Shown here piece after piece: positions 6,701 through 53,539 of a stretch of 53,539 nucleotides of DNA. This stretch comes from a virus (taxonomy: Duplodnaviria; Caudoviricetes): the IMG/VR virus record IMGVR_UViG_3300033143_002559, positions 1-53,539 of that record, one strand, 5' to 3'. The notes under the pieces were generated by a model, which searched no databases, was not told the DNA's origin, and saw only the letters and a program-made list of their open reading frames with translations. Position 1 is the first letter of the stretch, and the number at the start of each line of letters is the position of its first letter. The position numbers were made by a program, and so were the translations under genes.

Positions 6701-9700
6701 CGCCAAACTCAGTGAGCTTCTCCTGGACATGGACGATGGGGGCAATCTTCTGAAACAGGAACCGCTTGCCTCGCTCTCGGATATGTTCCGTCAGGGTCTC
6801 ATCCGGGAGCATGGCCGCAGGATGCTCGGTATCGTCCGCGATCTCGAGGGAGTAGAAGGTGTCGGGATCAGCAATCCTCTCGACGGGGCTCAACTCATCA
6901 GCGATGACCTTTGGCACCTTGCCGAATCCTGGCGGGTTCTTCTTGGCCTGTTTGAGCGCATCAGTCAGCTCATTCTCTGCCAGCTTCGCCGCTTTTTCGG
7001 CCTCTTTCTGTGCTTCCTCGGCACTCAGGATGGCATTCTCGATGGAGTAGAGCGCGGTGGCGCCCTGGTCGCCTGTGACTGTGTACTTTTTGCCCTTCTG
7101 GAGCTCGTAGACGTCGCCGGTCGCGATCTTCTTCATAACGCCGGCAGCGGTCTCGGGGGTGATGCCCAACGACTCCGAGAATGCACGGGCGAAATCGTAG
7201 ATGGCTTTCAAGGCACGCTCGGCCACGGTCAGCTTCTTCTCGCCCTCGAAATGCTTCTCCGCAAGCTGTTGGTAGGCTTTAGCTGCTTTCTCCTCGGTCC
7301 CGTACTCCTTGAGGATGGCCTGGCGCTGCTTCTCCTCCAGAACGTTGTGGAAGGCGAAGTGGAAGGACTCGTGGTAGAGGGTGTCTGGAGTCGCGTGAGG
7401 CGCCACGAGGCTGATTATGTGGGCCCCGGTAGCCTCGTAGAAGGTGTAGCTGCCCTTGACTACAGCGGTGCCGGCGGCGAGGCGGGCCCTGACCTCATCA
7501 GGATCCATCTTGTAGGCTTTCGCCATTCGCTGAATGCTTGCCTCGCTGTGGACCTTCGGCGCGGTGAAGTTGACCTGGAGGACGGGTTGGCCCTTACGTG
7601 TTACCTGGAAGCGGCCGGGCTTGGTTTGTCTGACGCCCCACCCCCTGAAGGTGCGTCGGATGTCCTGGACGGTTGGGAGCTTGGTTTCGGTTGGTTTTTC
7701 TAGGGACTCCTGCCTGAAGTCTTTTGGGCGGGCCATTTGAGGCTTCGGCCCAAGCCCCATGTTGCCCTTGCCGGTCTTGCTGAGGAGAGCAACCGCATCA
7801 TCGACGGTGGACAGATCAGTGAGAAGGCCACGTTCGATCGCTGATTCTCGAACCTGATCTGTGTGGACCTCGACACTCTTCGCTCGAGCCTTTGTTCCAG
7901 ACACAGGCGCGGCTGTGGGTTTCGGGGCACGGAAGTATGGAAGAATATCCCTGTTCTCATCCGGCACAAACCACTTGCCGGTTTTCGGGTGTCGCTCGTA
8001 GACTTGAACCAGACCCTTCATCTCTTTTAAGAATTCGTATTGCCTCTCATGCTCCTCTCGTTCGGCCTCGATGTTCTCGTTCGCGTACTCTGCCTGCGCT
8101 CGGGCCACTTCGATGCCGTAACGCATCCCGGCCTCGTTGATCGCAAAGCCGTCCGGGTCGATTCGTCCAGGCAGGACGCGGTAGGCGCCATCGACCTTCT
8201 CGACGACACCGAGCTTCACAAACTCCTCGATCGCATCATTGACCCTGGCTATTCTGATGCCGGCCTTACCAAAGCCGGTCATCTCCATGAGCTTCTCCTG
8301 TACCTCGTCCCCTGTCAGTAATTTACCTTCATTTTGGGTGAGTACGGCAGCTACGGCCTTGGGGTACTCTGAGGTGTTTTTGGTTTGCTGGATGCGTGAT
8401 GCCTGTTTGGGCTTGAAGGTAATAGCAGGGGCGGCTTCACCCGTAACGGGGGCAATGGGTGCCGGGACCGCTCCTGCCGGTTCTATCCCGGCTTGTCCTT
8501 CTTCCTCCTTCGCAGCGATACGGTCAATCTCTGCCTCTTCACCCACCGGCACCGGAGCCCCAATCTCGTCGAGGTCGGCCTGTGTGGGCTGTACCGGCTG
8601 TTCTATCCCCCCGGGCGCCACAAGGCCCTCTAACGGCGCGGAAGGTTGGGCCTCAGTAGCGGGCACGGCGCCCTCTGGAGCGGCAGGGAGCGGCCCAGGC
8701 TCCTCGATGGGCACCATTCCAGGCTCTACGGCGGCCTCGTCCTCCGGCAAGACACTCAAATCCTCCTGGTCTGGCTGTTCCATGCCACCAGAGAGGAAGG
8801 TTTCGGCCTCTTCTGCCGCTTGCTCGAGCTGCACGATCGCATCCTCGAGTGTCACATCGGCGCGGCCCTCGATAATCCGCTCAAGGTCGATCTCCTGGCC
8901 CTGGGCCCATGCGAGGCGGTCGTTGCCCTCGAGCCACAGAGGGGCGGCATTCCAGCGGGCGTTGTTGCGGACCTCTGGAGGAATGGTGGGTCCTTCCGGC
9001 CCCCCTGCCGGCGGGAGGAGATCTTCGCCAACAGGTGCCGCAGGACCGGATGGACCCTCAATCGGTGCTACGCCTTGTTCTATCGGCGGCATTGGCTCGA
9101 ATTCAGGTACGGCAAGGGGTTGATCGCCGGGGACTCCCTCGGCCTGTTGGATGTTGCCGGGGCCGGCGCCGCCCATGATCCCACCAATGAGGGCCCCTTG
9201 AATCATCGACTCAATCACCTGGGAGATGTTTTGCTCTATGCCCTCTGGAGTCAGCCAGCTTACCTTCTCGAGCTCGCCCTTCTCTGCATGGGCTATGTCG
9301 ACCGCGGTTTGCTCAACGAGTGTTTGGATCCCCTCGGTTCCGGCCTCCTCGAGCGCCTGGCGGCCACCGGACATTACACGCGCAACGAGCGCCTTCTTGA
9401 ACGTGTCGCGGACGATAGGCACCCTCTTGAGGAGGTTAGCGATAGGCATGGCCTCGAGTGCGCCGGCCATTACGCCGTAGGTGGCCGCAATGATGTCCGC
9501 TTCCGGGCCCTCGAATCCGGCACGGGCCAGGTCCTCAGAGATAGAGCCGGTTTCCAGGCCAGCGCCGGCAGCAAAGACAAGCCCCGTACCTATCCCACCA
9601 GCTACCGCAGCTGTGCCGGCGCCACCGACGCCAGCCAGGGCAGCGGCTCCAGCGATACCGCCAGGCAGCAGGCCAGCCCCGACGATCGAGCCCATGATCG

Positions 9701-15829: not shown

Positions 15830-18768
15830 TCTGTCACCTCCTCAACATATACGTCGATCTCGTAGGCGCCTAGCTTCCAAACCATGTTCTTCAGCCCGTG
15901 CTGATTTGTGCCCACAAACGCAAAGAAATCCGTTCCATCAGAACAAATTGGCAGGAAGTTGGACTCATAGGGGCCGGTTACATAGTGACCAAAATAATAA
16001 CCGGATCCGGTCGGGGCAGGCGTCAAAAACTGCGGGTCCTCCCAATCATAAGAATTAACATTCGTTGACCATGTTCGTCCACCATCAGTCGAGGTTATGA
16101 ACCCGGTCCTTTTGTTAGCCGAATAAGGGCTGCTGGCATATATGATCCTACAAACATAAGTTGGATGAACCGTATCAGCATCAACAACTGCTATTGAGTT
16201 CGCACCATGTTTCCAGTACCCGGAAGCGTCGAATTCACCATCAAACGACCGCCTGGTGGAAACCCCAAGGTGATTATCAGAAGGTCCGTATTCCACATAA
16301 GTAATGAGCCAGTCGGTGTTTCTCGATGCCCCGAAGGAATGAGCCTTGTATTTGGAGCCCGCGATAGAGGCAAAGATTGGCGGTGTATACGGCCGGAGCT
16401 GGTCAGGAGGAAAGTCCTGGAGAAATGCGTTTGCTGGTTTGGTGTCCCATTCCGCCCATGCGTTGAAGCCTCCGGCGCCTCCGCTGGAGCCGGTGTAGTA
16501 GATTTTCGCGCTTTGGGCAGAAATGGTAATATCGTATTCATCGCCAAGATTGCTGCTAGTACCAATCGCCCAAAGGGTTGAGGTTGTTGGGAATGTCATC
16601 GGGCTCCAAGTGAGTCCGTCCGATGCAGACTTGAGAACCGTTCCCTCTTTGCCAATAGCCAGGTATTCCCTCTTGGTAACTCCATCCCCGTCGTTGATAA
16701 CGGCAATGAGATCAACCGTGACGCCGCTCGATGGGGTAGTCCAGGTGACGCCGCTATCAGCAGAATGCCAAATGATGCCACCAAGACCAACGGCAACGAT
16801 GCTGTTCCCGTCCTTGGGCTCAAACGCTACTGAGGTCAGGGTGCTGGCCGGCGGATTGCCTCCGATTTGCCTCTCCGTCCAGTTGCCAGTCGCCGCATCT
16901 GGAGAAGTCCACACCCTGTTCCCAACGGCAATAAATTGGCTACCGTCATGTTGAGCATCGCAAATGAAATCTGACAAATCCCCAAAATCTGCATAGCTCG
17001 TGGCGCCGGCCTCGATCCTAACGCGCCGCCTAATCTTCCAAACCTTCCCGTTATCCATCAGGGCGTAGAAGCATCCATCCATCGCGTTGTAGGAGAGGTC
17101 AACAAACCCGCCGGCGCCGTGCCACGTATATTTGTATTCCCAGGTGATGCCGTCGAGCGAGAAGTAGGCTCTTGTTTTGGTGTAGTCTACTCCGTCTACC
17201 TCTTCTACATACGAATCGCCAACAGCGCAGCAACACCGGCCCTCGTCGTCCCATGCAACAGCGTGGAGATCAACCGTAATGGCGGGGTCGAGGATGTCAC
17301 AAGGCACCCAGTCGATCCCATTATTGTCTGATGTCACGCAGGCCCCGCCGGTTCCAACAGCAACCCATAAGTCGTGATATGGACTGTACGAAACCGAAGC
17401 CAGCGACTCGGTTGTGTTGCTTGTTCTCTTGGTGATCGAGGTTGGATTTGTGAAGGTGAGAATAACGCCGTCGCCGCCCTCCGCGTCACCAACGACAACG
17501 TAGTAGTGAGTCCCGCCTTCGACCTTCTGTGCAACGGCCATACTCCGCAGGGTAACGAGTGTATTGGTTGTGTAGATCGTGCCATTTTCGTCCCCAACAA
17601 GCCCACCCGCTCCACAGTAAAGCCAGGTACTAGGGGCCGCGGTTCTAGGCACCATAGAATATAGGGCCACTTCACCAAGCGGTGAGTCCTTTTCAAGATA
17701 ATTCGACGCCCAATTGTGATTGTAGGTTTCAAACGACCCACCCTCTGTTAGTGGAGGAGGGATTCTGTATTTTCCATCGGACCTAATGTGTTCACCCTGA
17801 AGCGTTAAAATATGTTTACTCGTTGAGAGCAGGCCAGCATCATAGGCTTTTGTAAAAGATATATCCTTGTTAGATGGGAGCGGGATTCCGTAGAGACCTT
17901 CACTACCAAACACGTTTCGAGAGAAGGCCGCACCTTCCTTGCCGGTAACGCAGATCGGCCAGAACGTTTCCTTGACGTCATCGAAGAAATCATACCGGAG
18001 CTCCCCGCCTGCCGAAATCGACGTGACTTCGATAGGCTCCCGTTCCGGCGCCTCAGTCTCCGCCTCATACCATGCGCCAAGATTCGTGCGACTGATGTTG
18101 GAGTAGAACGGGCCCGAAATGAGCCTCTCGTCAATCGGCTGATCCATGTTCACCGTGCCGTAGACAAGCCAGCCTCCCAGGGACTCAATCCTGATCGGCC
18201 ATATTGCACGATCGGCAGGATGGACTCTGAGGATCTCGTAGGGTTCATCGGTGAGGGCCGGCATGATCTCGTCGGTGAGGATGTGGTTGTCATCGACCAC
18301 CTTCTTGATCGTGTAGAGGTCGTTACCGTCCCCCGGCTCACGGATCAGGCACCCAGGCCACACCTCTTGCAGCCAGGCGGTGTTCTCGCCGTCGCTCTCC
18401 ACTTCGGCCTTGACCCCATCGGTCGTAATCGTGCCGTCCTTGTAGACGGAGTAGAGAGGCGCAACGACGCTGGAGACCCAGGTGAAGGGGGCCCACCGGC
18501 CGAACCAGATGGTGTGCCCTGAGCGGCTCACGTAGAAGGCGGAGTTCAGGTAGTCCTCGAGGTCAGACCCGGTGAGGTCCGCGGCCCATGATGCCATGCC
18601 AGCGTAGGCGGCCCGCCAGTTAGAGCGGAGGCTGATCGCGTTGTCGCTACGGGCGATGTAGAGGTTCTCGAGCTCGGTCATCCCCGGCGGGTCGATCTGT
18701 GTCGAGTGGGCCCGCAGGACCTTGGTGGCGCCTGAGAGGGGGATCGCCTTGTATTTCTTGTTTGCCAT
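15826..18768 (-). CDS. Tail protein: nozzle-like N-terminus plus Asp-box/BNR beta-propellers
   Basis: N-terminal ...TELENLYI...ISLR; many SxDGxTW boxes. Confidence 0.7.
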   Translation of the reverse strand: MANKKYKAIPLSGATKVLRAHSTQIDPPGMTELENLYIARSDNAISLRSNWRAAYAGMASWAADLTGSDLEDYLNSAFYVSRSGHTIWFGRWAPFTWVSSVVAPLYSVYKDGTITTDGVKAEVESDGENTAWLQEVWPGCLIREPGDGNDLYTIKKVVDDNHILTDEIMPALTDEPYEILRVHPADRAIWPIRIESLGGWLVYGTVNMDQPIDERLISGPFYSNISRTNLGAWYEAETEAPEREPIEVTSISAGGELRYDFFDDVKETFWPICVTGKEGAAFSRNVFGSEGLYGIPLPSNKDISFTKAYDAGLLSTSKHILTLQGEHIRSDGKYRIPPPLTEGGSFETYNHNWASNYLEKDSPLGEVALYSMVPRTAAPSTWLYCGAGGLVGDENGTIYTTNTLVTLRSMAVAQKVEGGTHYYVVVGDAEGGDGVILTFTNPTSITKRTSNTTESLASVSYSPYHDLWVAVGTGGACVTSDNNGIDWVPCDILDPAITVDLHAVAWDDEGRCCCAVGDSYVEEVDGVDYTKTRAYFSLDGITWEYKYTWHGAGGFVDLSYNAMDGCFYALMDNGKVWKIRRRVRIEAGATSYADFGDLSDFICDAQHDGSQFIAVGNRVWTSPDAATGNWTERQIGGNPPASTLTSVAFEPKDGNSIVAVGLGGIIWHSADSGVTWTTPSSGVTVDLIAVINDGDGVTKREYLAIGKEGTVLKSASDGLTWSPMTFPTTSTLWAIGTSSNLGDEYDITISAQSAKIYYTGSSGGAGGFNAWAEWDTKPANAFLQDFPPDQLRPYTPPIFASIAGSKYKAHSFGASRNTDWLITYVEYGPSDNHLGVSTRRSFDGEFDASGYWKHGANSIAVVDADTVHPTYVCRIIYASSPYSANKRTGFITSTDGGRTWSTNVNSYDWEDPQFLTPAPTGSGYYFGHYVTGPYESNFLPICSDGTDFFAFVGTNQHGLKNMVWKLGAYEIDVYVEEVTE

Positions 18769-26591: not shown

Positions 26592-26851
26592 TATTCGCCT
26601 CTCCCATTCTCGATCTTCTTCTGCGCGACGTTAGCTCCGAAGTAGAGCCCTATAATGAATATAACTCCTCCTGACCAGATTGCGAGGGAGGAGCTCCATT
26701 GAGTCTGTAGAGCTGCGTTGTCGAGCCATTTGAGCAATCGCGCCAGGAGAGCGATCCCCAGGTTCAGGAGGTGCATGGAGGTGTAGAGGATCAGGGCGCC
26801 TTTCGTTAGGGCCCATTTCCTCGAGGCGCGGGGGTCGAAGTCGGCCATCAG
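26591..26851 (-). CDS. Putative holin
   Basis: Two TM helices; SRKW N-motif and GLYFGANVAQK C-motif; next to the endolysin (start approximate). Confidence 0.7.
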   Translation of the reverse strand: MMADFDPRASRKWALTKGALILYTSMHLLNLGIALLARLLKWLDNAALQTQWSSSLAIWSGGVIFIIGLYFGANVAQKKIENGRGE

Positions 26852-27246
26852 TAGCACCACGCACTAGGCCGAGGCTTCACACTGCCCTTGTGGACGTCTA
26901 CATGGATGAAGCCCCTCGCCGTGCCTACTCCCTCCGCCCCGTGGTTGTGGGCGGCTTTCTGTACGACGTAGCGGTGCCTGCCGCCCTCCACCTGAATGTC
27001 CGCTGCTTCGCCTAGACAATGGACGGAGTTTTCGACCCCGCCCTCATTTTGATTATGGTGTTGACAGCGACACCAGGACGTAAGGCGAACAGGCCCGCCA
27101 ACATCTTCTCTGATTGCTTCAAGGAGCATGATGATCTCCAGCTGGACGTCCCCGATCTCCCGCCCGAACCCGCACCCGCACTTGCAGGCCGCCTCGTAGA
27201 CGTAGAAGTTTCGGGCGCCAGGCAGGAGGTCATTCATGTCTAGCAT
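26848..27246 (-). CDS. Endolysin, peptidase M15 (Zn D-Ala-D-Ala carboxypeptidase-like)
   Basis: EAACKCGCG, TSWCRCQHHN, SVHCLGEAADI, FIHVD. Confidence 0.9.
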   Translation of the reverse strand: MLDMNDLLPGARNFYVYEAACKCGCGFGREIGDVQLEIIMLLEAIREDVGGPVRLTSWCRCQHHNQNEGGVENSVHCLGEAADIQVEGGRHRYVVQKAAHNHGAEGVGTARGFIHVDVHKGSVKPRPSAWCY

Positions 27247-27434: not shown

Positions 27435-29053
27435 ATACTTTGCCAGTCCCAGGCGGGTTTACGGTCAGCCTTGGTATTGGTTGCCCCGACAATTGGGTTA
27501 AAGCCAGCAAGCTCCATCGTGCCGAGCGTGGCGTCAACATCGGCCCCGGCACCAGACGCACTCACGGTTGGATTGTGCCCCTGGAGAACCATCGTACCAA
27601 GTGTTGGGTTTACCTTGATCTCGTTCAGCACATCGTAGATGTACGCGCCCATTTCCCACAGGCCGGTAGCGGTGCCTACGGTTGGGTTGAAACCAGCAAG
27701 AACCATAGCTCCGACTGGGTCTTGCTCCACCTCTGTTGGGCCGGTATCTAACCCGCCAATCCAATCAGTGTTATCAAGCTCAATATCATCAAAGTAAAGC
27801 TCAGATGTCGCACCCGGAACAGCGGAGCCACTAGCACTCGCGCCGCACCGAAGCGTGTCACACAAGGCCGCTGATTGTGCCCCGGTGTAATCACTACCGA
27901 CTGAGGTTCCGTTTACTTTGAGTTCGCCGCCGCCGTCTGAACCAGACCCGGCCTGCCAATGAAATTCAATAAGCATCCAGGTATCAAGAGCCGGGTCTTC
28001 AGCACACACGCCATCTAAGATCGTGGTGTTTCCAGACCCGTTCCAGTAAATACAACGCCACCTAAAGGCTTGGTCGTCTGCTTGCACCCTCAAATTAAGT
28101 TCCATGAGGGATTGGGTATCGTCTTTTATTTCAAATACCTTGCATGATTGATAATCTGTAGGCACATTGAAGGCTGCATTCACCTTAAGGTAACCCCTAA
28201 AATACACCTCATCCTGGTCAGCTACCGTCTTGTAAGCGTAAACACCATTGTTCGTACCATCAAACGTTATCTTCGCACCCTTGCTGCCGCTGTTGATGTG
28301 GGCAGGAGTCGAAGAAACGGTGAGAGTGTTTGACCCCTCCTCCACCTTAGATGTGAACTCAGTGGTAAAGGCATCGACTTCGGTCTCTATGCCGGATGCG
28401 AAAACCACACCTACTGGGCCTAGCCAGTCAGCATCGTCAGCACCAAAATTGTCAACGTCAAGGGTTGAGCTTCCAGACGTTGTTCCCTTGTAACATCCGG
28501 CATAAATCGTATCGTGAGTCTTCGATACCGATGTCATCGTGACATTGTTTGAATCCCATACCAAAACTCCCGAGTCGTTATAAACCCTGGCTCTTATGGT
28601 GTCGTCGCCCGTGCCACCATTGTTGTGCGAGTAAAGCTCAAACCGGTAGTATCCACTTGGTTTTGTGGCATAGCTGCTTGTTGATGATGTGTAGCCACCA
28701 TAGCCAAATTGTACCCTCCACGCCCAGTCCCCGCTTCCATCCACTATGGCCCTGAGTTGAGCTCCTTCATCATACGCAGTTTCACCAGCAGCCAAAATCG
28801 TTAACCCGCTTGAGTTCGGCAAATCAAGGCTAGAAACATCTATGTATGCACGAGCATAGATTGTTAATTCAGCCGAGATGTCCTTGTACACGCAGGCTTG
28901 ATCGTTTGTCCCGCCTAATGTGCAGCGTGCCCCGTACGTCCCTGTGTGTGGCGCAGAACTGGATGCCGCTACGGAATTGCCGGATTCAGTCAGCGAACCA
29001 GTTACGTCAGTGAGATCGCCTTCTTCAAAGTCGGCTTCAAATATGTTTGCCAT
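27419..29053 (-). CDS. Fiber/appendage protein: two lectin (ConA/LamG-like) domains plus three GxMxLxGxNPxV repeats
   Basis: Tandem homologous domains ending DWLGP/DWIGG; repeats GAMVLAGFNPTV, GTMVLQGHNPTV, GTMELAGFNPIV. Confidence 0.7.
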   Translation of the reverse strand: MANIFEADFEEGDLTDVTGSLTESGNSVAASSSAPHTGTYGARCTLGGTNDQACVYKDISAELTIYARAYIDVSSLDLPNSSGLTILAAGETAYDEGAQLRAIVDGSGDWAWRVQFGYGGYTSSTSSYATKPSGYYRFELYSHNNGGTGDDTIRARVYNDSGVLVWDSNNVTMTSVSKTHDTIYAGCYKGTTSGSSTLDVDNFGADDADWLGPVGVVFASGIETEVDAFTTEFTSKVEEGSNTLTVSSTPAHINSGSKGAKITFDGTNNGVYAYKTVADQDEVYFRGYLKVNAAFNVPTDYQSCKVFEIKDDTQSLMELNLRVQADDQAFRWRCIYWNGSGNTTILDGVCAEDPALDTWMLIEFHWQAGSGSDGGGELKVNGTSVGSDYTGAQSAALCDTLRCGASASGSAVPGATSELYFDDIELDNTDWIGGLDTGPTEVEQDPVGAMVLAGFNPTVGTATGLWEMGAYIYDVLNEIKVNPTLGTMVLQGHNPTVSASGAGADVDATLGTMELAGFNPIVGATNTKADRKPAWDWQSIWRKW

Positions 29054-30786
29054 CAGTAATCTCCCTGATCGCCAGTTACAATGTCATCGGGCCAAGCTGC
29101 GGCTGGCAGAAACGCCTCGCTATACGGCCCCCCAAGATCAACTCCAGTGTCAATACACGGAGAGCCAGCCAACAGGGTGTAGTCATTGTTGTCCCTATCG
29201 GTGAACAACGGGTCTTCACCTGTGGAGTGTTCAGCAAATCCATACGTTGAAAACCATGTGTCGAGGGTGTACTGATTCCACTGACGGCTGATCACATTGG
29301 TTGACTCATCTTCCTTGCGGAGAAGGTTGTAGTCAGAGTCAAATCCGGTGTAGTCATCGAGCGACGTGTAGAGGTAGATCGCGTGCTGCACAGCACCGAT
29401 GATGATGTTGTTCTTGATCTTGGTCCCTTGTGGGCTACTGTCACCCTCGATGTAGATGCAGCGGGTTGAGTAACCGGCCCCGTCCAAAATGTTCCCATAG
29501 ACCAGCGTCCCGTAAGAGCCGCTCCCCACACCAGATCCACCAATCCCAAGCAGAATATTAGTGTAGCCATTATCGTATGTCCTATATACGATATTGCCCC
29601 AAATTTCATTGCTATGCGCCCGTTGCCACAGCCTGATCTCATATCCCTGACCGCCCCACCCGTTGTCCCATATCCTGTTTAGATAGACATGGTTGGAGTA
29701 AGAATCTATTTCTACGAGAATCCCGCATTGTCCGTTCCCTGAGATGGTGTTCTTGTAAATGTGACAATTCACGCAACCCTCGCCAGAGGAGCCGTCAAGG
29801 TCAATCCCGTCGAGATCGTTGTCGTGAGAGTGGTTCCCAACCATCGTGCAATTATCGACCCAAAGAAACTTCAGCCCGTAACCATCGAACGGGGTCGTAC
29901 CTGAATACCCAGTGGTTCGGCTGTGGTGAGTTTCGTTGTTGGAAAATGTGACTCGCAAGAGCTTGTTGGTCGGCCCGCCGCCGGCAGATATGTTGTGAGC
30001 GCCGCAATACGAAACCGTGTTCCCATCAGCCAGAGAGTCTGCCGCCTTGAGTGTGACCCCCTCGCCAGCACACCACTCGACGGTGCAGTTTTGGATGGTC
30101 ACATGATGGGTAAGTGCCTGACCGCCATCACAGCGGAATCCCCCATTCTCATCGTTCCCACGTTTAATATGGATGCCGTCAACCATGATGTAGGTTTGTC
30201 GGTACAGCCTAAAGCACCCGATCTGCGGAACCTCAATTACCACCCCTGATGTGGTGGGGTTTCCACCCGTGTCATCGCGGACGTAGACGGTATCGTAATT
30301 CAAGCCATCATTGTCGCCGTATCCCCACTCAAGGTCATTCAGAGCACCGAGCCCGTTAAAGTCTGGAACAGCCCCGCCCTTGGTGAGACTCACGTCATCC
30401 ATGAACACCAGCCCAGGATCTATGAGAGTTGGGTCTCCTCCGCCGGAAAGCTCACAGAAGAACTCTCCGGGCTTGGTTGTTGATTCTGTCCATTTGTGCG
30501 TTCCGGTAGTGATATCAACCGAGCCATCGAAGACCGGAGTGTGACCTGGATAAGCGAGGTGTGAGATATCAGAAACAGCAGAGCCGCTGGCTTTGAACGA
30601 CAACATCGTTGTGTTGTAATCTCCACCAGTATCAGCGAGATAGACGTTATCCCCGGCAGACAAGGCAGTTGCCCAAATGTTGTGGTTGGCAACGCTCATG
30701 CACTCACTCGCGATGTCCGGGTCTCCGTCCAGGCACGCGGCAAGACTCACCGCTGTCCCGAGCTCCCGGGCTGTGTAGTTCGCCAT
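29053..30786 (-). CDS. Right-handed parallel beta-helix protein (depolymerase/tailspike-like)
   Basis: N/D-ladder repeats (GNHSHDNDLDGI, YKNTISGNGQCGI); SDYNLL; DPLFTD...DYTLLAGSPCIDTG. Confidence 0.85.
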   Translation of the reverse strand: MANYTARELGTAVSLAACLDGDPDIASECMSVANHNIWATALSAGDNVYLADTGGDYNTTMLSFKASGSAVSDISHLAYPGHTPVFDGSVDITTGTHKWTESTTKPGEFFCELSGGGDPTLIDPGLVFMDDVSLTKGGAVPDFNGLGALNDLEWGYGDNDGLNYDTVYVRDDTGGNPTTSGVVIEVPQIGCFRLYRQTYIMVDGIHIKRGNDENGGFRCDGGQALTHHVTIQNCTVEWCAGEGVTLKAADSLADGNTVSYCGAHNISAGGGPTNKLLRVTFSNNETHHSRTTGYSGTTPFDGYGLKFLWVDNCTMVGNHSHDNDLDGIDLDGSSGEGCVNCHIYKNTISGNGQCGILVEIDSYSNHVYLNRIWDNGWGGQGYEIRLWQRAHSNEIWGNIVYRTYDNGYTNILLGIGGSGVGSGSYGTLVYGNILDGAGYSTRCIYIEGDSSPQGTKIKNNIIIGAVQHAIYLYTSLDDYTGFDSDYNLLRKEDESTNVISRQWNQYTLDTWFSTYGFAEHSTGEDPLFTDRDNNDYTLLAGSPCIDTGVDLGGPYSEAFLPAAAWPDDIVTGDQGDY

Positions 30787-32432
30787 CAGTAGTCCCCCGG
30801 ATCACCAAGCAAGACGCCATCCGGCCACGTTGACCCTTCTAGCAACATCTCGTTGTACGGAGGTCCGAGAATTTCGCCAATGCCGATGCACGGAGAGTTG
30901 GACTTCAGGGTGAAGTCGTGGTTCTCGGCGTCGGTGAACTGCGGGTCATCGGGGATAGAGTGGGCGTCTTGCGGATTTCCAAGCCCGTCTGTGAGCGCCT
31001 GCCACTGTGCAAGCGTGTACCCGGTTGTGCCGAGCTTGATAAGCCCGACGCCATTACTATTGAAGCAATTATAATCAGAGTCGATGTCCACGAAGGTAGC
31101 GTCATTGCACCGCAGGTCTGGACCTGTTGATCCAGCAACAATGTTGTTTCTCAAATACACATCTATGGTGCCAGAAAGCTCAATCCCCCAGGAGCATCCG
31201 TAGACAACATTCCCGACAATGAAGTTCGTGCCATCCTGACCAGAAGCGAAGAACGTTCTAATGGAAGACCTTGATGTATCGGTCGCCCCCCATGTGACGT
31301 TGCCCATGATGGTGCAATGAGAACTACGAGACAGCCCGATGTTGCTGCCACCGTCGATGTTGTCATACACCATGTTGTGCTTGATCATGTTGTAATACGA
31401 GAACTCAAGAAGAATCTGCTGGATGGTCCCAGGCTGGCCGTCGAAGTCACCACCGTTTTCATAGATTAGGTTTTCCGATATGGTGTTCCACCTACAGCCC
31501 CAGTGATTAGGGTAAGCCCCGCCGCCATCCAACCTGATCGCACCAGAGTCGTTGTGGTGCCAGGTTGACTTGGTGAGAATCGAGTTATCCATCCCAAAGG
31601 CTTTGATGCCAGCGCCGTCGTTCGAAACGCCGTCGATGAAGACTTGGTGATGGATCTCGCAGCCCGTTACAGTCAACCGTTCAAGCTTGTTGACTTCACC
31701 GGCGCCAGTTCCGATTCCATCCCCTGAGTTGTAGGAAATGTGGCAAGAGTCGATGAGACCATCGTCGGAGTGTGCGGCCCACTTGATCCCCACGAAGTTC
31801 CACGAGACATCGCAATTGCTAACGATGCACCAGTCGCTATTGTTGAGGGCATAGATCCCAAGCCAATCTGAGTGCATAATCGTGAGACCATCAAATTTCA
31901 CGTAGTCAACGCCATCAAACCTAGCAACGTATCTACGTGAGCCTGATTCCGTGCCGGGGCTAGTGTAACGAGTATCTGGATCTGTGGCGCTGTACTGGTA
32001 GAGAATGTCCGATTCCCAGCACCAGTCTTGGTCTGCTGCCAGGTTCGCCGGAAGCGCCTTCTTAGCACCACGCACCCCATCAAGAAATACCATGATTGGC
32101 TCGTCGGCGGTGACGGTGGCCTTCCACACATTCGTATCATGTAAGGTCCAGCCGGTTATGATGTTCGATCCCTTGAATACAGGAGTGTCGCCTGGGTATG
32201 CGAGTACCTCGATGTAGTTTCCTATCGAACCCGAGCCTTGAGGAGTCAGATACCCCCGGTAATCTAATCCAGCAGCTGAATCGTCCGCACAATAAATTTT
32301 ATCTCCAGCCACAAACGTCTCACCGTTGAAAACACTCAAATTCATGCACTCGGCGACAAGGGTTGGGTCGCCATCTACAGCCGCTGCCTTGTTCGCCGCC
32401 GTGCCGTCTTCTCGAACAGTGTAATTAGGCAT
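30786..32432 (-). CDS. Right-handed parallel beta-helix protein, paralog of 29053-30786
   Basis: Homologous N-terminus (MPNYTVRE/MANYTARE), SDYNCF, DPQFTD...DFTLKSNSPCIG; also ends in GDY. Confidence 0.85.
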   Translation of the reverse strand: MPNYTVREDGTAANKAAAVDGDPTLVAECMNLSVFNGETFVAGDKIYCADDSAAGLDYRGYLTPQGSGSIGNYIEVLAYPGDTPVFKGSNIITGWTLHDTNVWKATVTADEPIMVFLDGVRGAKKALPANLAADQDWCWESDILYQYSATDPDTRYTSPGTESGSRRYVARFDGVDYVKFDGLTIMHSDWLGIYALNNSDWCIVSNCDVSWNFVGIKWAAHSDDGLIDSCHISYNSGDGIGTGAGEVNKLERLTVTGCEIHHQVFIDGVSNDGAGIKAFGMDNSILTKSTWHHNDSGAIRLDGGGAYPNHWGCRWNTISENLIYENGGDFDGQPGTIQQILLEFSYYNMIKHNMVYDNIDGGSNIGLSRSSHCTIMGNVTWGATDTSRSSIRTFFASGQDGTNFIVGNVVYGCSWGIELSGTIDVYLRNNIVAGSTGPDLRCNDATFVDIDSDYNCFNSNGVGLIKLGTTGYTLAQWQALTDGLGNPQDAHSIPDDPQFTDAENHDFTLKSNSPCIGIGEILGPPYNEMLLEGSTWPDGVLLGDPGDY

Positions 32433-36968: not shown

Positions 36969-38847
36969 CGTCGATGACTCTTGCTTGGAGCTGTTGGATG
37001 ATGTTCGTGAGTTGGGCGATGGTTTGCGCCATAGCCTCGCCAGCCATTTTGGAACCCTCGATGTCGAGCTCATTCTTAACCTCCTGCATATCGAACTCCG
37101 CTAGGAATTCGTTGAGGACGAGATCATACACATCAAGGAAGTTTCCGGCGAGGGCAGCAAGTGGCCCGCCCTCAACAGCCACCGATCCCATCTCCGCCGC
37201 ACCGTTGAAGATTTCCGGTAGCTTGTCGACCATTGCCAGGATCTCTTGTTTCTTGATCGCCTTGGACATGGTTTGCGAGTTGACCTTGGTCTCGATGATG
37301 ATTTGGTCTTTCCAGTATCCCGGCGGGAACTCGATGGTCATGGCCTTCATCATCTCGCCAAGCTCCTCGTCCTGGGCGTCGATGAAGATTTGCATGGACT
37401 GGGGATTGAACTGGCGGTAGCGCGAGTATTGCATCTGGACGATGCGGGCGAGGAACTCCCGGTAGCGGGTCATCATCTCGAACAGGGGTTGCATGGCCCG
37501 CTCGAGGATGGCGCTGGTTCCGGTCGCGGTCGGCCGTTCCGCGAGCTCCTGGCCGAAGAAGGCCGGCGGGATAGAGGCGGCATCGTGCATGTGCTTGACG
37601 ATGCGCTCGAGCAGGTTGAGGAGGAAGCCAACATCGCCGGAGGCCAGGCGGACCTCCATGATCCCTTTGCGGAGATCGTCGATCATCGCATCCTCAACTT
37701 CGGCCAGGCCGGGGCCGAGTTCCCCGTTATCGAGGAAGTTGGAGAGTTTGAGGCGCTTGAGGGCGATGAGGAGCGGGTTGATCGCTCGCACGCCAGCGTC
37801 GAGGAGGATGTTCATAATCGCCACGTATGCGCGGTGGAGCTGATCCAGCACGGAGCAGAGCGATTTGCCGTCCATTGAGGCGAGGGTTGGGTGCCAGGCG
37901 AAGGTTGAGTACGGGCGGGGGAAGTCCTGGTAGAAGGGGCCATGCGCTGCCAGCCACGTTTTCTGTTTCAGGTCGAGGATGATGACGACCTCTTCGCCGT
38001 CGTAGACGGTGTAGGTCTCCATGAGGGAGACCTCCGAGAGTTCGGTCTTGTTCGCCTTGGGCTCAATCCCGTGGGCAGCATGGATCTCTTCCTTGGCGAG
38101 TTCGGCATCGGCATCCTCGCGGGCCTCACCGATCGACATAGGATCCAGGTCTTTGCGGTAGTAGTCCTTGTCCTGTTCGATCTTGATTTTCCCCGGCGTA
38201 CTCTCGAACCGCTCACAGAACCACCTTGCCTCATCGACCGATGCGGAGGGGATGGGGTGATAGATCCGGCGGGTATCGACAACGTAGGGGAAGCACCCCT
38301 CGTCCTCGATAATGGTTTTGGTTTGTTCAACGTCCTCGCCCATCTCATCGACATCCCAGTACCGGATTTTTCGCTCACGGAAGGACCAGGCGGTTTTGAC
38401 GACGGACTTGGTGAAGATTTGGGCGCCGCGGATCGAGTCGTTAACGACGGCCTCGTATTTCGAGCGATCGGCCATCCAGTCGATGAGGACATCGTGCGCG
38501 GAGGCCATTTCGGTAAATCCAGGCCGGCCCTTGCCGACGAAGATTTGATCCTGGGCGAACACTGGGTTGGAGATGTTCGACCCGGCGTGCCTGCAAATCT
38601 CGAACGTGATGGTGAAATCGAGTTGCGCGTCTTTGTCGCCGCGGGCCTTGGGATCTCCGGTGGCCCAGTAGTTTTCCTCGCAGGACGTCCATTCCGGCTC
38701 GAGGGTGTCCTTGCGGTTCTCCACCACCTCGTCGATCTCGTCACAGAGGGCGACAACGAAGGCATCGAACGCCTCATCTTCTCCGAGCTTCTTGACTAAG
38801 TGGGTTATTTCGTAGGTTTGCGGGGGTTTCCGTGTGGCTTGAGTCAT
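36871..38847 (-). CDS. Portal protein
   Basis: 658 aa right after TerL; DGKSLCSVLDQLH, ERPTATGTSAIL. Confidence 0.88.
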   Translation of the reverse strand: MTQATRKPPQTYEITHLVKKLGEDEAFDAFVVALCDEIDEVVENRKDTLEPEWTSCEENYWATGDPKARGDKDAQLDFTITFEICRHAGSNISNPVFAQDQIFVGKGRPGFTEMASAHDVLIDWMADRSKYEAVVNDSIRGAQIFTKSVVKTAWSFRERKIRYWDVDEMGEDVEQTKTIIEDEGCFPYVVDTRRIYHPIPSASVDEARWFCERFESTPGKIKIEQDKDYYRKDLDPMSIGEAREDADAELAKEEIHAAHGIEPKANKTELSEVSLMETYTVYDGEEVVIILDLKQKTWLAAHGPFYQDFPRPYSTFAWHPTLASMDGKSLCSVLDQLHRAYVAIMNILLDAGVRAINPLLIALKRLKLSNFLDNGELGPGLAEVEDAMIDDLRKGIMEVRLASGDVGFLLNLLERIVKHMHDAASIPPAFFGQELAERPTATGTSAILERAMQPLFEMMTRYREFLARIVQMQYSRYRQFNPQSMQIFIDAQDEELGEMMKAMTIEFPPGYWKDQIIIETKVNSQTMSKAIKKQEILAMVDKLPEIFNGAAEMGSVAVEGGPLAALAGNFLDVYDLVLNEFLAEFDMQEVKNELDIEGSKMAGEAMAQTIAQLTNIIQQLQARVIDDESQLVDIGGQVSDVPPAGMEPDGDQPPQASA

Positions 38848-40517
38848 CGTCTACCCCCACCTCTCACCAGTCCATAACGGACGGGCATCGGATGAACATT
38901 GGTTCCGTATTCGTCATCGCTCTCATCTCGAATATGGGTCGTGGAGTAGCGTTTGTCATCCTCTGCGTAGATCCACCAGTCAACGTGCATTGGCATGGTG
39001 TCCGCCAGCGCAGGGCTGTCTCCCATGATTGTTCCATCTGGTGCGATGTTGAGGTTGACCAGATGGGATACAACTTCTTCATGATCAGGGTATAGCACAA
39101 AAACCTGATGATCCGCAACGTAGGGATGGAATCTGTCGAGCAAGCGCCTGCCCTTGCTCTGCCCTCCTGGGGTAAACGGTTCGATTTTGATGTAGATGCT
39201 CCGCTTGACCATTTCCTGCTTCAGCCAGGCGCCAACCCACACTTGCATGGCGCCGGCCTCGGGGATGAGCAAGCGGGCATCCCACTTGATCCCCATGTCG
39301 AGGAGGGCGGTGATTTGCGCCATCGGGTTTGGGTGTTCCTCGCGCCAGTAGTCGAGCAGGCACCCGAAGCGCATTGACGGCAGCCACCAGAACGCGGTGA
39401 TACCGGAATCGTTGGAGTCTTTATTGAGTCCGCCGGTCGGATCCATCGCCACGGTAACGAAGCCGAGCGATGCTGGGTAAGCCACGCCGTCGATGTAGAT
39501 GGCTTGCAGTTTGCCGTTAGAGTCATGTGATCTGGTGTAGGGCAGGAAGTCCTCACGCCGGAAGCGCCGGATCCCCTCGTCGAGAAGGACGTTGAGCATC
39601 TGGTGAGCGAACTTGTAGGATCCCATTTGCCGGAGGGTTTTCTTGAGTCCCTCCATTGTTCGCCGCTCGGGGAAGATGGGTTGCCCCTCCTGCCACACGA
39701 GCTCGCGGTTGGGCTCCAGCACGCTCTCGTTGATGTACTCCTCGTTATCGGTTGGGAGTTTCAGGCCGAGGGAATCGAGGAAGTTATACCACTGGTCGTT
39801 GCAGTAGCATCCGAGAACCATCTTGCAGTAGTCGGGGCTCTTGAGGAGCTGTTCATAGTAGCCCTTCTCGCCGCCGGGCCAGAGGGTGCCGATGATGAGG
39901 AGGATGGAGTTTTCATCCTCGAACAGCGGGTCCAGGGTCTCAAGGAACTCGACGGCGCCGACCATCTCCGCGGCTGAGTTGGCGGCTTTGTTGTCCACAC
40001 CGTCGTCGACGATGATGATGTCGTAGTGCCCGCCGACGATACCGGACTTGACGCCGGCCAGGGTGACGGATGCCTCGGGGCTCTCGATGGTGCGCGTGAC
40101 GGAGAATTCCGTAGCGGTCCAGACGTTGCGCCTGGCATCCGGTGGTGGGACAAGGCCGGGGAAGTAGAGGCGCATGGCGCGGCCCTGGAGGATGTGTTTG
40201 ATCTTCCGGCCCTTCTTCTTCGCCTCGTCCAAGTTGTGCATACACATCAAGATACGTTTGTTTGGGTCGTTGATTAGGATGTGGACGATGTAGGCGATGT
40301 TGAGGAGCGAGGTCTTGAAGTGACCTCGAGGGACCATGCAGAGGAACCAGCGGTTTCCTTCGTCGAGCCCCTTTTGGAACCACATCGCCATAGCGAAGTG
40401 CAGCACGAGGGAGAGCTTGTGGAATTCGCAGAGATACCAGGCGGTCCAGAAGATGCTTTTCCGACACTTTGCTTGGATTTTCTTGATGTCAATGGGCGCT
40501 TCTTCGGCGCCTGGCAT
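38844..40517 (-). CDS. terL: Terminase large subunit
   Basis: Walker A PRGHFKTS, Walker B GGHYDIIIVDD, IIGTLW, nuclease VAMDP...DSGI. Confidence 0.95.
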   Translation of the reverse strand: MPGAEEAPIDIKKIQAKCRKSIFWTAWYLCEFHKLSLVLHFAMAMWFQKGLDEGNRWFLCMVPRGHFKTSLLNIAYIVHILINDPNKRILMCMHNLDEAKKKGRKIKHILQGRAMRLYFPGLVPPPDARRNVWTATEFSVTRTIESPEASVTLAGVKSGIVGGHYDIIIVDDGVDNKAANSAAEMVGAVEFLETLDPLFEDENSILLIIGTLWPGGEKGYYEQLLKSPDYCKMVLGCYCNDQWYNFLDSLGLKLPTDNEEYINESVLEPNRELVWQEGQPIFPERRTMEGLKKTLRQMGSYKFAHQMLNVLLDEGIRRFRREDFLPYTRSHDSNGKLQAIYIDGVAYPASLGFVTVAMDPTGGLNKDSNDSGITAFWWLPSMRFGCLLDYWREEHPNPMAQITALLDMGIKWDARLLIPEAGAMQVWVGAWLKQEMVKRSIYIKIEPFTPGGQSKGRRLLDRFHPYVADHQVFVLYPDHEEVVSHLVNLNIAPDGTIMGDSPALADTMPMHVDWWIYAEDDKRYSTTHIRDESDDEYGTNVHPMPVRYGLVRGGGRR

Positions 40518-51034: not shown

Positions 51035-51505
51035 ATGAAAAAGAATCTTTCAGATCGTTTTTGGCCGAAGGTGGACAAGCGCGGCCCGGATGAGTGTTGG
51101 GAGTGGAAAGCCTCGAAGGGTAGTCGTGGATATGGGCACTTCCGAACTTACCCAACGGCGGACAGGGCCCACCGCGTAGCCTGGGAGCTCACACACCACG
51201 ACCCAATTCCAGACGGGATGTGCGTGTGCCACGTCTGCGACAATCCCGGCTGTGTGAACCCGGCTCATCTCTTCGTCGGCACCCAGGGGGACAACGTTCG
51301 GGATTCATGGGCCAAGGGCCGCGGGAAACATCAAGTCCACACTGGAGAGGATCACCCGATGGCGAAACTCACCGAGACCGATGTTAAATTCATTCGGCAT
51401 TGGGCCAAGAGGGGCTACACCCTACAAGAAATTGGTGATGTGTTTGGCGTCAGCTTTCAAACAATTTCAAGAATTAAACTCAGAAACGGATGGAGGCATG
51501 TATGA
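51035..51505 (+). CDS. HNH homing-type endonuclease
   Basis: CWEW...GYG...AHRVAW...VCHVCDNPGCVNPAHLFVGT..DN plus C-terminal HTH. Confidence 0.93.
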   Translation: MKKNLSDRFWPKVDKRGPDECWEWKASKGSRGYGHFRTYPTADRAHRVAWELTHHDPIPDGMCVCHVCDNPGCVNPAHLFVGTQGDNVRDSWAKGRGKHQVHTGEDHPMAKLTETDVKFIRHWAKRGYTLQEIGDVFGVSFQTISRIKLRNGWRHV

Positions 51506-51873
51506 GCGGACCAGAGGGACCAGAGATGCCGCAAGTACCAAACCCGGATGGTAGGATTTTCCGTGCTGCTGCTGCGAACTTAGGGGGCGCCGCAACATAC
51601 GGCGGCAACGCGATGGTCGATCAGCGACCAGTGACCGATCACGCAACGAACATCGAAAGCCAGCTCGAGTCGCTCGGCCGCGAGATCCAGCTTCTAACCG
51701 ATCGCCTGAACCCGATCATGGCGCCGGAGCCGCCGGCCAGCGGGGGGATCGCAACAGCACCCGAGGCGCCAGTGGGGAACTCAGACCTCGCCAACAGGCT
51801 CCACATGATCTCGAACCAGATATCGAGGCTACAGGGCATGGTCAACCTGACATCCACGAGAATCGAAATATGA
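51502..51873 (+). CDS. Hypothetical coiled-coil protein
   Basis: GGAGG SD; L..RL.PI...PP pattern; two helices. Confidence 0.65.
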   Translation: MSGPEGPEMPQVPNPDGRIFRAAAANLGGAATYGGNAMVDQRPVTDHATNIESQLESLGREIQLLTDRLNPIMAPEPPASGGIATAPEAPVGNSDLANRLHMISNQISRLQGMVNLTSTRIEI

Positions 51874-52040
51874 ACTTCCGCCCCGAGCTGCCGACCGGCC
51901 CATTGGACGCAGCGGGGAGGCTGGACAAACCCGCCTACAAAACCCAAACTGCATGTTGGCAATTGCGATCACTTTCCCACCAACACAACACCTTCCCCCC
52001 GAGGCCGGCGGGGGCGGGTGTCCCGCCTTGGAGGTGAGGG

Positions 52041-52223
52041 ATGCAAGCAACCAAGTACAGCGTCAACATCAATGTCGAGGCCCTTAGCCTTGATTCCGTT
52101 CCTGCGCTAGTCTACGAGGCAATTCAGCAGATCGACGAAAACGAGTCGATGGCAGGCACCGTCATCAAGGACGATGGCGATACCGTGGACTGGACCGTGA
52201 GAAAGAAGGATGTGGAGTTTTGA
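52041..52223 (+). CDS. Small conserved phage protein
   Basis: GGAGGTG SD; 60 aa. Confidence 0.65.
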   Translation: MQATKYSVNINVEALSLDSVPALVYEAIQQIDENESMAGTVIKDDGDTVDWTVRKKDVEF

Positions 52224-52543
52224 TCGCTCTACTCCTCATGCTGGCGCTTGAGTGTCCGGTGTTCATAGGCACTCCAGAATATGTCTACGCGAAGGTGTAC
52301 TACTTGCACGAGAATCCGCGAGGGCTGAGGTGGGTGTACACGACGCCCGTGAGTATTGAGTCCTACAGGTACATCATTCCGAACATCCAAGGGCATCCTG
52401 TGGCGTTCGAGTGGTGGACGAGGACGAGCACGGCTGTACCGTTCACCTTGAAGAAGCTGTGTGGGGAGGTGCCAGATCCGGTGTACCCGCTGATCTTCAA
52501 GGACGGTTTCGAGAGTGGAGATTTGGAGGCATGGAGTGAGTGA
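52220..52543 (+). CDS. Putative exported protein ending in IFKDGFESGDLEAWS
   Basis: Short hydrophobic N-terminus; TTG start overlapping the upstream stop; C-terminal IFxDGFESGD..W motif. Confidence 0.7.
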   Translation: MIALLLMLALECPVFIGTPEYVYAKVYYLHENPRGLRWVYTTPVSIESYRYIIPNIQGHPVAFEWWTRTSTAVPFTLKKLCGEVPDPVYPLIFKDGFESGDLEAWSE

Positions 52544-53123
52544 TTGCAAACATGAGAGATTAACCACGTTTCATTATAACGGAGGTGGCGGGAGAGGGTG
52601 GTGCGATTCCTGCGGGGCGCGCTTCTCCCTTGAAGCAGTGCGCGAGATCAATCGACTGCGGGAAATCAAGAAGACCCTAAGCCTACAGGCGGCGGGGTTG
52701 CTGTCGGAGAATGAGCAGCCACAAGCCGATAATCACATCTTTCTGTATTCTCGTAAGCGCCTGCAAGCCCGCGTGGAGGAGTTGGAGGCGCTGCTTCACG
52801 ACCACGCCTGTCCAGTGGTTCAGTGTCCAGGCCACCACATCACCGACGAGCAGATCGACGCGGCGTGGAAGTTTGCTGATCGAGACGATCACACCGCTTG
52901 TTCAGACCGCAATTGCTGTGATGGTGTTGATGTGCTCGAAATTCTTCACATCTTCAGGTGCGAGGGGTGCGGCGGGAGTGGGGAGACTGATGTTGCATGG
53001 AGAACCAGATGCCCCGACTGCAACGGTCACGGGTGGGTGAAGGAGGAGTGTGGAGGCCACGAGTGGATCAAAACGTCCGTAGATCCCAACAAAGACGGAC
53101 AGAACGGGACAGACGATGGATGA
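52536..53123 (+). CDS. Cys-rich multi-zinc-finger protein
   Basis: CKH...CDSCG; CEGCGGSG...CPDCNGHG (DnaJ-like CxxCxGxG); GTG start. Confidence 0.6.
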   Translation: MSDCKHERLTTFHYNGGGGRGWCDSCGARFSLEAVREINRLREIKKTLSLQAAGLLSENEQPQADNHIFLYSRKRLQARVEELEALLHDHACPVVQCPGHHITDEQIDAAWKFADRDDHTACSDRNCCDGVDVLEILHIFRCEGCGGSGETDVAWRTRCPDCNGHGWVKEECGGHEWIKTSVDPNKDGQNGTDDG

Positions 53124-53229
53124 CTGCGGTGTAGTTACATTTGTACTCATGGCACTGTCAATTGCCACAGGGCTTGTGTGGGGGTGGGCTGCCCATGAGA
53201 TGTGGGTGAAGGAGGAGGGCGATGGGTGA
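53116..53229 (+). CDS. 37-aa membrane peptide
   Basis: MDDCGVVTFVLMALSIATGLVWGWAAHEMWVKEEGDG; overlapping junctions. Confidence 0.55.
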   Translation: MDDCGVVTFVLMALSIATGLVWGWAAHEMWVKEEGDG

Positions 53230-53350
53230 CGCACTTGAAGCGGCGGCGGTGCTCGTCATTCTCATAGTGGCATCTTGCATATCTGCGGCCTTTATTTTCA
53301 GCACGGCAGTAATCGTGATGCGACTAATAACAAGGGGGAAGGAAGAATGA
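53222..53350 (+). CDS. 42-aa membrane peptide
   Basis: GGAGGAGG SD; MGDALEAAAVLVILIVASCISAAFIFSTAVIVMRLITRGKEE. Confidence 0.6.
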   Translation: MGDALEAAAVLVILIVASCISAAFIFSTAVIVMRLITRGKEE

Positions 53351-53539
53351 ACACTCTACTGGGAACAATAGTCGTCATGTTGGTGACAACGGCGCTGATT
53401 TTCGGAGTCCCGATGCTGTTCCAGGGCGACATGGAGACTCGGACGATAGCACTTGATTACAGGCCCATGTTGCCGGAGGGTGATGAGGTCACGACAGCAC
53501 CGATGGAGCCAGCCCCGTCACCGTGGCGTGGGTTGGCTG
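53347..53539 (+). CDS. Membrane protein, allele of 223-774, running off the window into the circular junction
   Basis: MNTLLGTIVVMLVTTALIFGVPMLFQGDMETRT vs MKTLFGTLAAMLVTTALIFGVPMLFQSDMETRT. Confidence 0.8.
   Translation, partial: MNTLLGTIVVMLVTTALIFGVPMLFQGDMETRTIALDYRPMLPEGDEVTTAPMEPAPSPWRGLA
53426..53539 (+). repeat. 114-bp exact direct repeat, copy 2
   Basis: Identical to 302-415. Confidence 0.95.

Follow-up and report, generated by a model that had tools for sequence, protein, structure and literature searches.

Exported bacterial proteins of families such as the choice-of-anchor proteins, the M36 peptidases and the ExeM/NucH extracellular nucleases bear, in one lineage or another, a PEP-CTERM, GlyGly-CTERM, MYXO-CTERM, LPXTG or type IX secretion system (T9SS) signal. 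PEP-CTERM, GlyGly-CTERM and LPXTG signals are recognized by a hydrophobic helix with a basic cluster, and the T9SS sorting domains are folded and 70–100 residues long. Among phages, T5 Llp, Cor of phi80 and N15, lambda Bor and the spanins are small proteins that reach the envelope by a host-type signal, a lipobox or a membrane helix, and their genes often lie close to lysis genes. Here we describe a phage protein that ends in a putative signal of another kind. The DNA analyzed, hereafter the window, is the complete 53,539-bp IMG/VR virus record IMGVR_UViG_3300033143_002559 (linear class, CheckV completeness estimate 100), which, judged by its predicted large terminase (TerL) gene (38844..40517, minus strand; phrog_38, 6.1e-42), is a tailed phage. 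At 52220..52543 on the plus strand (stop codon included) it carries the gene for a 107-aa protein, P0001. The tail of P0001 also ends dozens to about 100 secreted proteins per genome in a group of Acidobacteriota; therefore, the phage has probably borrowed a bacterial surface-sorting tag. P0001 has no sequence or fold relation to Llp, Cor, Bor or the spanins.

Translation of P0001 (MIALLLMLALECPVFIGTPEYVYAKVYYLHENPRGLRWVYTTPVSIESYRYIIPNIQGHPVAFEWWTRTSTAVPFTLKKLCGEVPDPVYPLIFKDGFESGDLEAWSE) starts at a TTG codon. Residues 1–11 (MIALLLMLALE; 52220..52252) form a short hydrophobic head without a basic n-region, and residues 12–82 (52253..52465) a two-cysteine (C12, C81), seven-stranded β-sandwich that is the core of the protein family. 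A linker follows at residues 83–91 (EVPDPVYPL; 52466..52492; the proline-rich part is EVPDPVYP, 83–90), and the C-terminal tag, IFKDGFESGDLEAWSE, occupies I92–E107 (52493..52540), with the TGA stop codon at 52541–52543. An earlier note on this DNA, made from the sequence alone, had pointed out the hydrophobic N-terminus, the two cysteines, the proline linker and the tail at the stop, all of which are present. Residues 92–105 (IFKDGFESGDLEAW) match the pattern [ILVF]F.DGFE[ST]G....W, and the stop codon comes 2 residues past W105; the bacterial tags mostly end 0–8 residues past the tryptophan. The motif occurs a single time in the six-frame translation of the window, and the back-translated pattern gave one match (52493–52534) and none in 100 dinucleotide-preserving shuffles. 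The minus strand holds a mirror open reading frame (ORF) of 112 aa (52229..52567) without any Pfam or PHROG match, while 62 relatives of the plus-strand ORF were found at E ≤ 1e-3, indicating that the plus strand is the coding strand.

By reading, the head MI.LLL.LAL recurs in many relatives. It is shorter than a textbook Sec signal, and with LALE preceding C12 it departs from the bacterial lipobox L-[AS]-[GA]-C; in the relatives, the folded domain begins with the equivalent cysteine, and the residue before this cysteine is E or D. The structure of P0001 was modeled with AlphaFold2 (AF2) from a 44-sequence alignment, which gave a mean pLDDT of 88.2 and a pTM of 0.74. The model contains a seven-stranded sandwich at residues 14–82, with pLDDT values of 90–98 over the core, 56 over residues 1–10 and 74–77 over the tail, which is a coil outside the sandwich. 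Fold searches with this model returned E 0.45 at best from the PDB with Foldseek, E 0.14 from BFVD and Z 5.8 from VIA wide, so the predicted core appears to share only a generic resemblance with Ig/FN3-like sandwiches. No family was matched by P0001 in Pfam (E ≤ 0.01), PHROGs or NCBIfam (E ≤ 10), and the ESM Atlas search gave no usable match. The sole family hint was NTTRR-F1 at E 0.25 on P0002, and the PDB sequence search gave one weak match, 4xup, to the tail only (E 0.036).

To learn where the tail occurs in bacteria, GTDB species genomes were scanned for the long motif, which gave at least 120 stretches; 80 loci with 82 motif instances were examined. Among the matches listed, 63 of the 82 instances lie at most 15 aa from a stop codon, typically as IFADGFESGDTSAWSxxVP-stop, and 65 of the 80 loci are Acidobacteriota by title (Thermoanaerobaculia, Holophagae, Vicinamibacteria, Sulfomarinibacteraceae and Multivoradales, the last two being Thermoanaerobaculia). 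Four of the listed loci come from two metagenome-assembled genomes (MAGs) titled Deltaproteobacteria (G306, locus L062) or Polyangiaceae (G005, locus L077); as the phylum samples for both consist of the same genomes as that for a Thermoanaerobaculia MAG, GTDB places them in the same phylum. The phylum sample of G308, an 'uncultured bacterium', likewise consists of these genomes. Five listed loci are titled merely 'bacterium', and each of the six that belong to other phyla shows the jelly-roll use described below. A complete GTDB scan for DGFE.G....W..VVG[DEG], the commonest ending in the phage family, returned 45 stretches, of which 38 have Acidobacteriota-type titles and 32 end at most 10 aa from a stop.

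The number of tags per genome was counted with DGFE[ST]GD...W, the reversed pattern serving as a control that gave 0 in every genome. There were 110 copies in G001, 93 in G306, 83 in G003, 79 in G308, 74 in G010, 40 in G005, 31 in G002 and 24 in G309; Acanthopleuribacter had 2, a Methylomirabilota MAG 1 and a Dokdonella MAG 0. Among 60 other genomes sampled evenly across the phylum, one was tag-rich, three had a single copy and 56 had none, indicating that the tag system is restricted to a clade. The short form, IFADGFE-stop, gave at least 83 in-frame ends at 80 GTDB loci (L205–L284) among the matches listed, with titles such as Dokdonella, Rudaea, Rhodanobacteraceae, Lysobacterales, Marinicella and Sedimenticola. 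These proteins are large (median frame 475 aa), and their ending is a gammaproteobacterial version of the tag with 7 residues. The scans and counts thus agree with the earlier note, which had named the long motif as the ending of many Thermoanaerobaculia-type proteins and the short one as that of Rhodanobacteraceae/Lysobacterales-type Gammaproteobacteria.

The presumption that the tail is a sorting or anchoring signal was strengthened by the nature of its bacterial carriers. When 54 tagged proteins from Acidobacteriota, each 150 aa or longer, were searched against NCBIfam, choice-of-anchor families Q (4/54), B (2/54; 509 and 466 bits) and J (2/54, one above the cut-off) were matched, together with M36 peptidases (5/54), one of which aligned nearly end to end with the T9SS-dependent M36 model at 813 bits (cut-off 885). 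Further carriers were an ExeM/NucH extracellular nuclease, subtilisin-like proteases and proteins with ELWxxDGT or DUF11 repeats. A signal-peptide-like head was found by a permissive heuristic in 37 of the 53 tagged proteins whose 5' end lay within the locus, and many of these heads are textbook examples. With 24–110 copies per tag-rich genome, a role of the tail as a sorting signal in bacteria is well supported, and the best explanation is that it takes the place of the PEP-CTERM, GlyGly-CTERM, MYXO-CTERM or T9SS domains of homologous proteins in other phyla.

The tag resembles PEP-CTERM/exosortase, GlyGly-CTERM/rhombosortase, MYXO-CTERM/myxosortase and LPXTG/sortase signals in its position at the extreme C-terminus, its restriction to clades, the tens to about 110 proteins that it marks per genome and its choice-of-anchor, M36 and ExeM/NucH carriers. 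It differs from them in its composition: IFKDGFESGDLEAWSE is acidic and has neither a hydrophobic run nor a basic cluster, and the tag is 16–19 residues long in Acidobacteriota and 7 in Gammaproteobacteria. The lack of a membrane helix and a basic cluster excludes it from the exosortase and sortase types. With the T9SS sorting domains (type A, TIGR04183) it shares the helix-free C-terminal position on secreted proteases and other proteins; however, no TIGR04183 match covers the tail, the single match among the 54 carriers being internal (L072, residues 483–518 of 1196), and neither TIGR04183 nor the type B sorting-domain models matched P0001–P0005 in NCBIfam at E ≤ 10. No NCBIfam or Pfam model matches the tail. 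In full-text literature searches, the motif strings led to three unrelated papers among those listed, and a search on sorting signals of these taxa turned up no paper on the tail either, so the tag appears to be undescribed in the libraries and literature searched. We know of no sorting enzyme for it. PorU-like C25 peptidases (NF033707) were considered as a marker of the machinery and rejected, as they are present regardless of the tag and all fall below the T9SS_sortase cut-off; one genome of the phylum sample G006–G065, G055, has ten such genes.

On the phage side, relatives of P0001 were sought by a word-indexed search and then by a full HMMER scan of 1.84 billion representatives. The former found four relatives with 48–65% identity, all with the tail and two with the tail doubled, and the latter 62 proteins at E ≤ 1e-3. 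A hidden Markov model (HMM) of the two-cysteine domain of about 70 aa, built from 44 of the members that it matches, recognizes 55 of the 65 stored proteins, P0001 included, and these form a family known from metagenomes only. Of the ten that it does not match, P0023, P0024, P0044, P0047, P0049, P0055 and P0064 are tail-only matches and P0056 ends in two tails without the domain; P0053 and P0062 were rejected as members because their matches were spurious and saposin-like. P0001 heads both family alignments, A1 and A2, and in A2 (44 sequences) the members are 32–63% identical to it. The core follows the signature C..V...Y...YY.HE.P..G.RY....EG.PVA.EW....L.K.CG, in which H30, E31, G58, P60, W65, C81 and G82 are conserved.

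In 45 of the 55 members, a regular expression finds the tail after the last domain; P0028 and P0063, added by eye, make 47. In 40 members the tail lies at most 15 aa from the protein end. Within A2, its F93, D95, G96, F97, E98, G100 and W105 are each either invariant or conserved in at least 90% of the sequences. Ten members have two or three domains, and in such tandem forms no tail follows the first domain; in P0002, P0003 and P0038 the tail is doubled. The tag of P0001 is thus conserved and modular within the phage family, which answers the earlier note's question whether homologues would keep the motif. The phage endings (WSxVVGG, WSKVVGDG and the like) correspond to the Thermoanaerobaculia variant, and P0001 itself ends earlier, at WSE. 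By reading, many members have textbook signal peptides (for example P0007, P0017, P0021 and the product of 5665–6288 in contig L036), and the two conserved cysteines flank the sandwich domain, which we also count toward export. Many members have an additional Cys-rich module, approximately CDHCPDPDS..C......C..CW..CGQPIATPTP, which precedes the sandwich and is flanked by PT-rich linkers (P0026, P0032, P0046, P0048, P0057, P0060, P0061 and the products of 5665–6288 in L036 and 5205–5963 in L038), and P0013 and P0038 have a different Cys-rich module, located after the tail. Neither bacterial genomes nor deposited phages yielded a relative: 100 GTDB matches to two conserved peptide patterns from A1 included none that was confirmed, and with P0001 as tblastn query no match at E ≤ 1 was obtained among 50,697 deposited phage records.

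The tail is also borne by phage proteins outside this family. A second family of about 175–200 aa (L004, L007, L014 and L023) starts with MTALLLAAVLA and continues to FCPETASIFADGFETGDLSRWGGAS. When the L007 protein was compared with profile A2 by hhalign, the 17 tail columns and nothing else aligned, with a probability of 95.3%. In L023 the gene of this family is split, leaving a 25-aa ORF that contains the tail alone. A 409-aa protein of L017 has the tail at its end as well and, judged by eye, looks unrelated to P0001.

Concerning the gene neighborhoods, a cell-wall hydrolase (endolysin) gene directly precedes the family gene in five of nine distinct phage contigs. The hydrolase is an Amidase_3 protein in L035, L037 (the L006 contig) and L018 (the L034 contig), combines GH108 and PG_binding_3 in L033, and has a weak M23 match below the cut-off in L013. 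By reading, small membrane-protein ORFs and a lipoprotein-like ORF come after the family gene in L006. Elsewhere the surroundings differ: contig L036, whose TerL is like that of the window, has the family gene about 1.2 kb upstream of the TerL gene, and in L039 an HNH gene resembling that of the window sits immediately upstream of it. The position of the family gene is therefore variable, as for accessory genes.

In the window, the tagged gene lies within a tightly packed string of plus-strand genes, as indicated by its overlaps with both neighbors. A 60-aa ORF upstream (52041..52223, plus strand), which itself follows a 167-bp intergenic gap, has no Pfam match above the cut-off and no PHROG match. 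The TGA that ends it shares bases with the TTG at which the tagged gene begins (tTTGAtc), with GGAG just upstream, suggesting translational coupling of the two. An HNH endonuclease gene (51035..51505, plus strand; Pfam and PHROG) is found two genes upstream of the tagged gene, and other window genes matched PD-(D/E)XK, RusA and RadC. The end of the tagged gene is overlapped by a Cys-rich gene with DnaJ-like CxxCxGxG motifs (52536..53123, plus strand; a weak HypA-like Zn-ribbon match only), which is read in a different frame and probably starts at the GTG at 52536, after GGAGG; the longest ORF begins at 52515. A DnaJ-like gene of this kind recurs in L038 (4883–5302), immediately upstream of the family gene, and in L036 (2184–2678), about 3 kb from it. 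Beyond it, three small plus-strand ORFs (53116–53229, 53222–53350 and 53347 to the record end) each encode, by reading, one hydrophobic helix. A promoter and terminator scan of 51400–53539 yielded nothing that exceeded shuffled sequences.

The motif has a second use, which the earlier note had overlooked. The pattern [IVL]F.DGFE.G....W is the first strand of concanavalin-like jelly rolls: residues 196–369 of P0044 align with positions 1–193 of PF14099 (Polysacc_lyase) at 51 bits, N-terminal strands of CBM_4_9 match too, and the carbohydrate-binding modules (CBMs) of the solved structure 4xup open with a similar strand (E 0.036). In the giant bacterial proteins P0023, P0047, P0049 and P0064 the motif opens each repeat unit of about 200 aa. 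Among viral contigs the pattern was found at 31 loci; at 23 of these it is followed by at least 127 residues and opens a larger domain, and at the remaining eight it stands 5–10 residues before the stop. P0001 has the same motif, but it stops 2 residues after the tryptophan, so that the 150–200 residues which complete a jelly roll after its first strand are absent. Four viral loci (L002, L012, L027 and L032) encode a conserved N-terminal module of about 100 aa (..PPRFLK....YFT.) that is joined at IFSDGFESGDF.AWTGT to variable jelly rolls; as the joint lies exactly at the motif, the motif marks a module junction in phage genes.

The tag itself points to the host. The earlier note had proposed an acidobacterial host, and Thermoanaerobaculia and Holophagae do have motif-bearing proteins; a host of this type seems rather likely to us. 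The other comparisons were uninformative. Searching GTDB genomes for TerL gave 44 pattern stretches, none of them a relative, and 301 genomes of the phylum of G001 contained one weak match (E 6e-12) and no prophage relative. None of the three pieces into which the window was divided had a spacer-like match in five tag-rich genomes, where the best match to the window, in the RadC gene, covered 209 nt at 69% identity. Tetranucleotide correlations with the window were 0.65 for acidobacterial loci, 0.45 for gammaproteobacterial ones and 0.43–0.67 for five other phyla, and since these values overlap, tetranucleotide similarity does not discriminate between hosts.

Taken together, P0001 is best explained as an accessory protein in which a hydrophobic head and a 16-residue C-terminal tag enclose a payload, a disulfide-type Ig-like β-sandwich. 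That the phage family uses the tag-sorting pathway of its host is the best explanation of the tail, and we hold it with modest confidence. P0001, a short-headed member, would be exported; the host machinery for the tag would then recognize the tail, and the sandwich domain would be placed where tagged host exoproteins go, presumably the cell surface or the outer envelope. As to what the payload does there, we rank a late, envelope- or lysis-linked role first, although tentatively, because in five of the nine contigs the gene comes directly after an endolysin gene and before small membrane-protein ORFs, a lysis-cassette context that the earlier note had missed. Superinfection exclusion or receptor masking, which that note had put forward together with the sorting reading and the taxonomic distributions that have stood, comes second and is possible but doubtful. 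Several observations weigh against the sorting explanation or its parts. The head of P0001 comprises just ten hydrophobic residues (MIALLLMLAL) with zero basic ones, and the heuristic that found signal peptides on the bacterial carriers takes the best of several possible starts and is therefore biased towards yes. Eight family members have no tail, seven of them tandem-domain forms and the eighth, P0043, a protein that ends at the domain boundary. The window gene stands amid DNA-metabolism genes, 25 kb away from the endolysin gene, so the lysis link rests on the relatives. PorU-like C25 matches occur in 28 of 61 phylum-sample genomes, tag-free ones included, and none tracks the tag. The tag is the sole pointer to the host, and in viral contigs the jelly-roll use of the identical motif is the commoner one.

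There are other explanations of the tail. It could be a docking strand, that is, an orphan jelly-roll strand or hairpin that binds non-covalently, donor-strand style, to a surface protein whose own jelly roll is incomplete, a dock that the phage protein would plug or use. The PF14099 and CBM_4_9 strands, the 4xup modules, the repetition of the motif in each unit of the giant proteins, the doubled tails and the absence of a membrane helix from the tail would all be in line with this. However, no receptor was found, PF14099 as a possible dock being matched in none of the five tag-rich genomes at E ≤ 1e-3; moreover, the gammaproteobacterial form is just IFADGFE, which is short for a hairpin, and AF2 does not fold the tail as one. 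We therefore regard docking as unlikely, and its extension, by which an orphan jelly-roll strand or hairpin, given to a common receptor, would keep about 100 exoproteins per cell at the surface in the acidobacterial clade and, in a 7-residue form, in Lysobacterales-type bacteria, as equally so. If it were true, at least two and possibly three unrelated phage proteins would have acquired a copy of the ligand, by which the phages of these hosts would occupy or exploit the receptor during lysis or shut out rival phages; the tag would in addition be a sequence-only marker for assigning uncultured phages to these hosts. It is quite improbable that P0001 stays in the cytoplasm, its tail acting as a decoy, which would titrate or block whatever host factor recognizes tagged precursors and so jam the pathway from within, or serving an unrelated phage-internal purpose: the heads of about ten residues without a basic n-region in P0001, P0002–P0004, P0008 and P0018 and the early-type DNA-metabolism genes around the window gene would suit such a protein, while the features by which many relatives look like extracellular proteins (full signal peptides, PT linkers and additional Cys-rich modules) and the cysteines flanking the domain would not. 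Very improbable, finally, is a functionless relic of module shuffling, left at a jelly-roll gene junction after the rest of the domain was lost. In the viral instances the motif does mostly start a larger domain, often past a conserved N-terminal adaptor, but a relic would hardly persist in diverged members, in each case at their extreme end and with its F, D, G, F, E, G and W, match the bacterial C-terminal variant and recur in at least one unrelated phage family. Use of the host sorting pathway thus remains our preferred reading.

The rest of the window shows a phage without close deposited relatives, its TerL having at most 31% identity to any of the 50,697 records. The endolysin candidate of the window is a Peptidase_M15_3 protein (26848..27246, minus strand), which is not adjacent to the tagged gene, and no tRNA genes were found. 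A 2245-aa LPD38-domain protein (3744–10481, minus strand) matches giant-protein PHROGs with its C-terminal third (phrog_14770, 2.6e-94). Two adjoining right-handed β-helix proteins (29053–30786 and 30786–32432, minus strand), with Beta_helix and NosD matches and weak DUF5123 matches below the cut-off, are likely tail spikes or depolymerases, and beside the β-helix genes are those of two large proteins with weak BNR/Sortilin-like matches (13355–15829 and 15826–18768). The last 193 bases of the record (53347–53539) repeat 223–415, with 177 of 192 aligned bases identical and the final 114 exact; the 222 bases preceding the first copy are not repeated. As a consequence, the start of ORF 223–774, whose product has a membrane helix and a Zn-ribbon-like C-terminus, recurs almost unchanged in the ORF that is truncated by the record end. 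The repeat could stem from a paralog or a partial terminal redundancy, or the assembly may have wrapped around, with variation between strains.

C-terminal sorting signals organize many bacterial surfaces, and each new one has named sets of surface proteins and pointed to machinery. In bacteria of the Thermoanaerobaculia/Holophagae type, a single genome can have as many as 110 proteins with the present tag, and among Lysobacterales-type bacteria the short form is common. Phages are already known to encode envelope proteins that rely on signals of the host, and P0001 would add another variant to these. The same tail in the P0001 family and in at least one unrelated phage family would mean that viruses copy an address label of their hosts. 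If this is true, the tag would be a cheap host marker for phages of Acidobacteriota.

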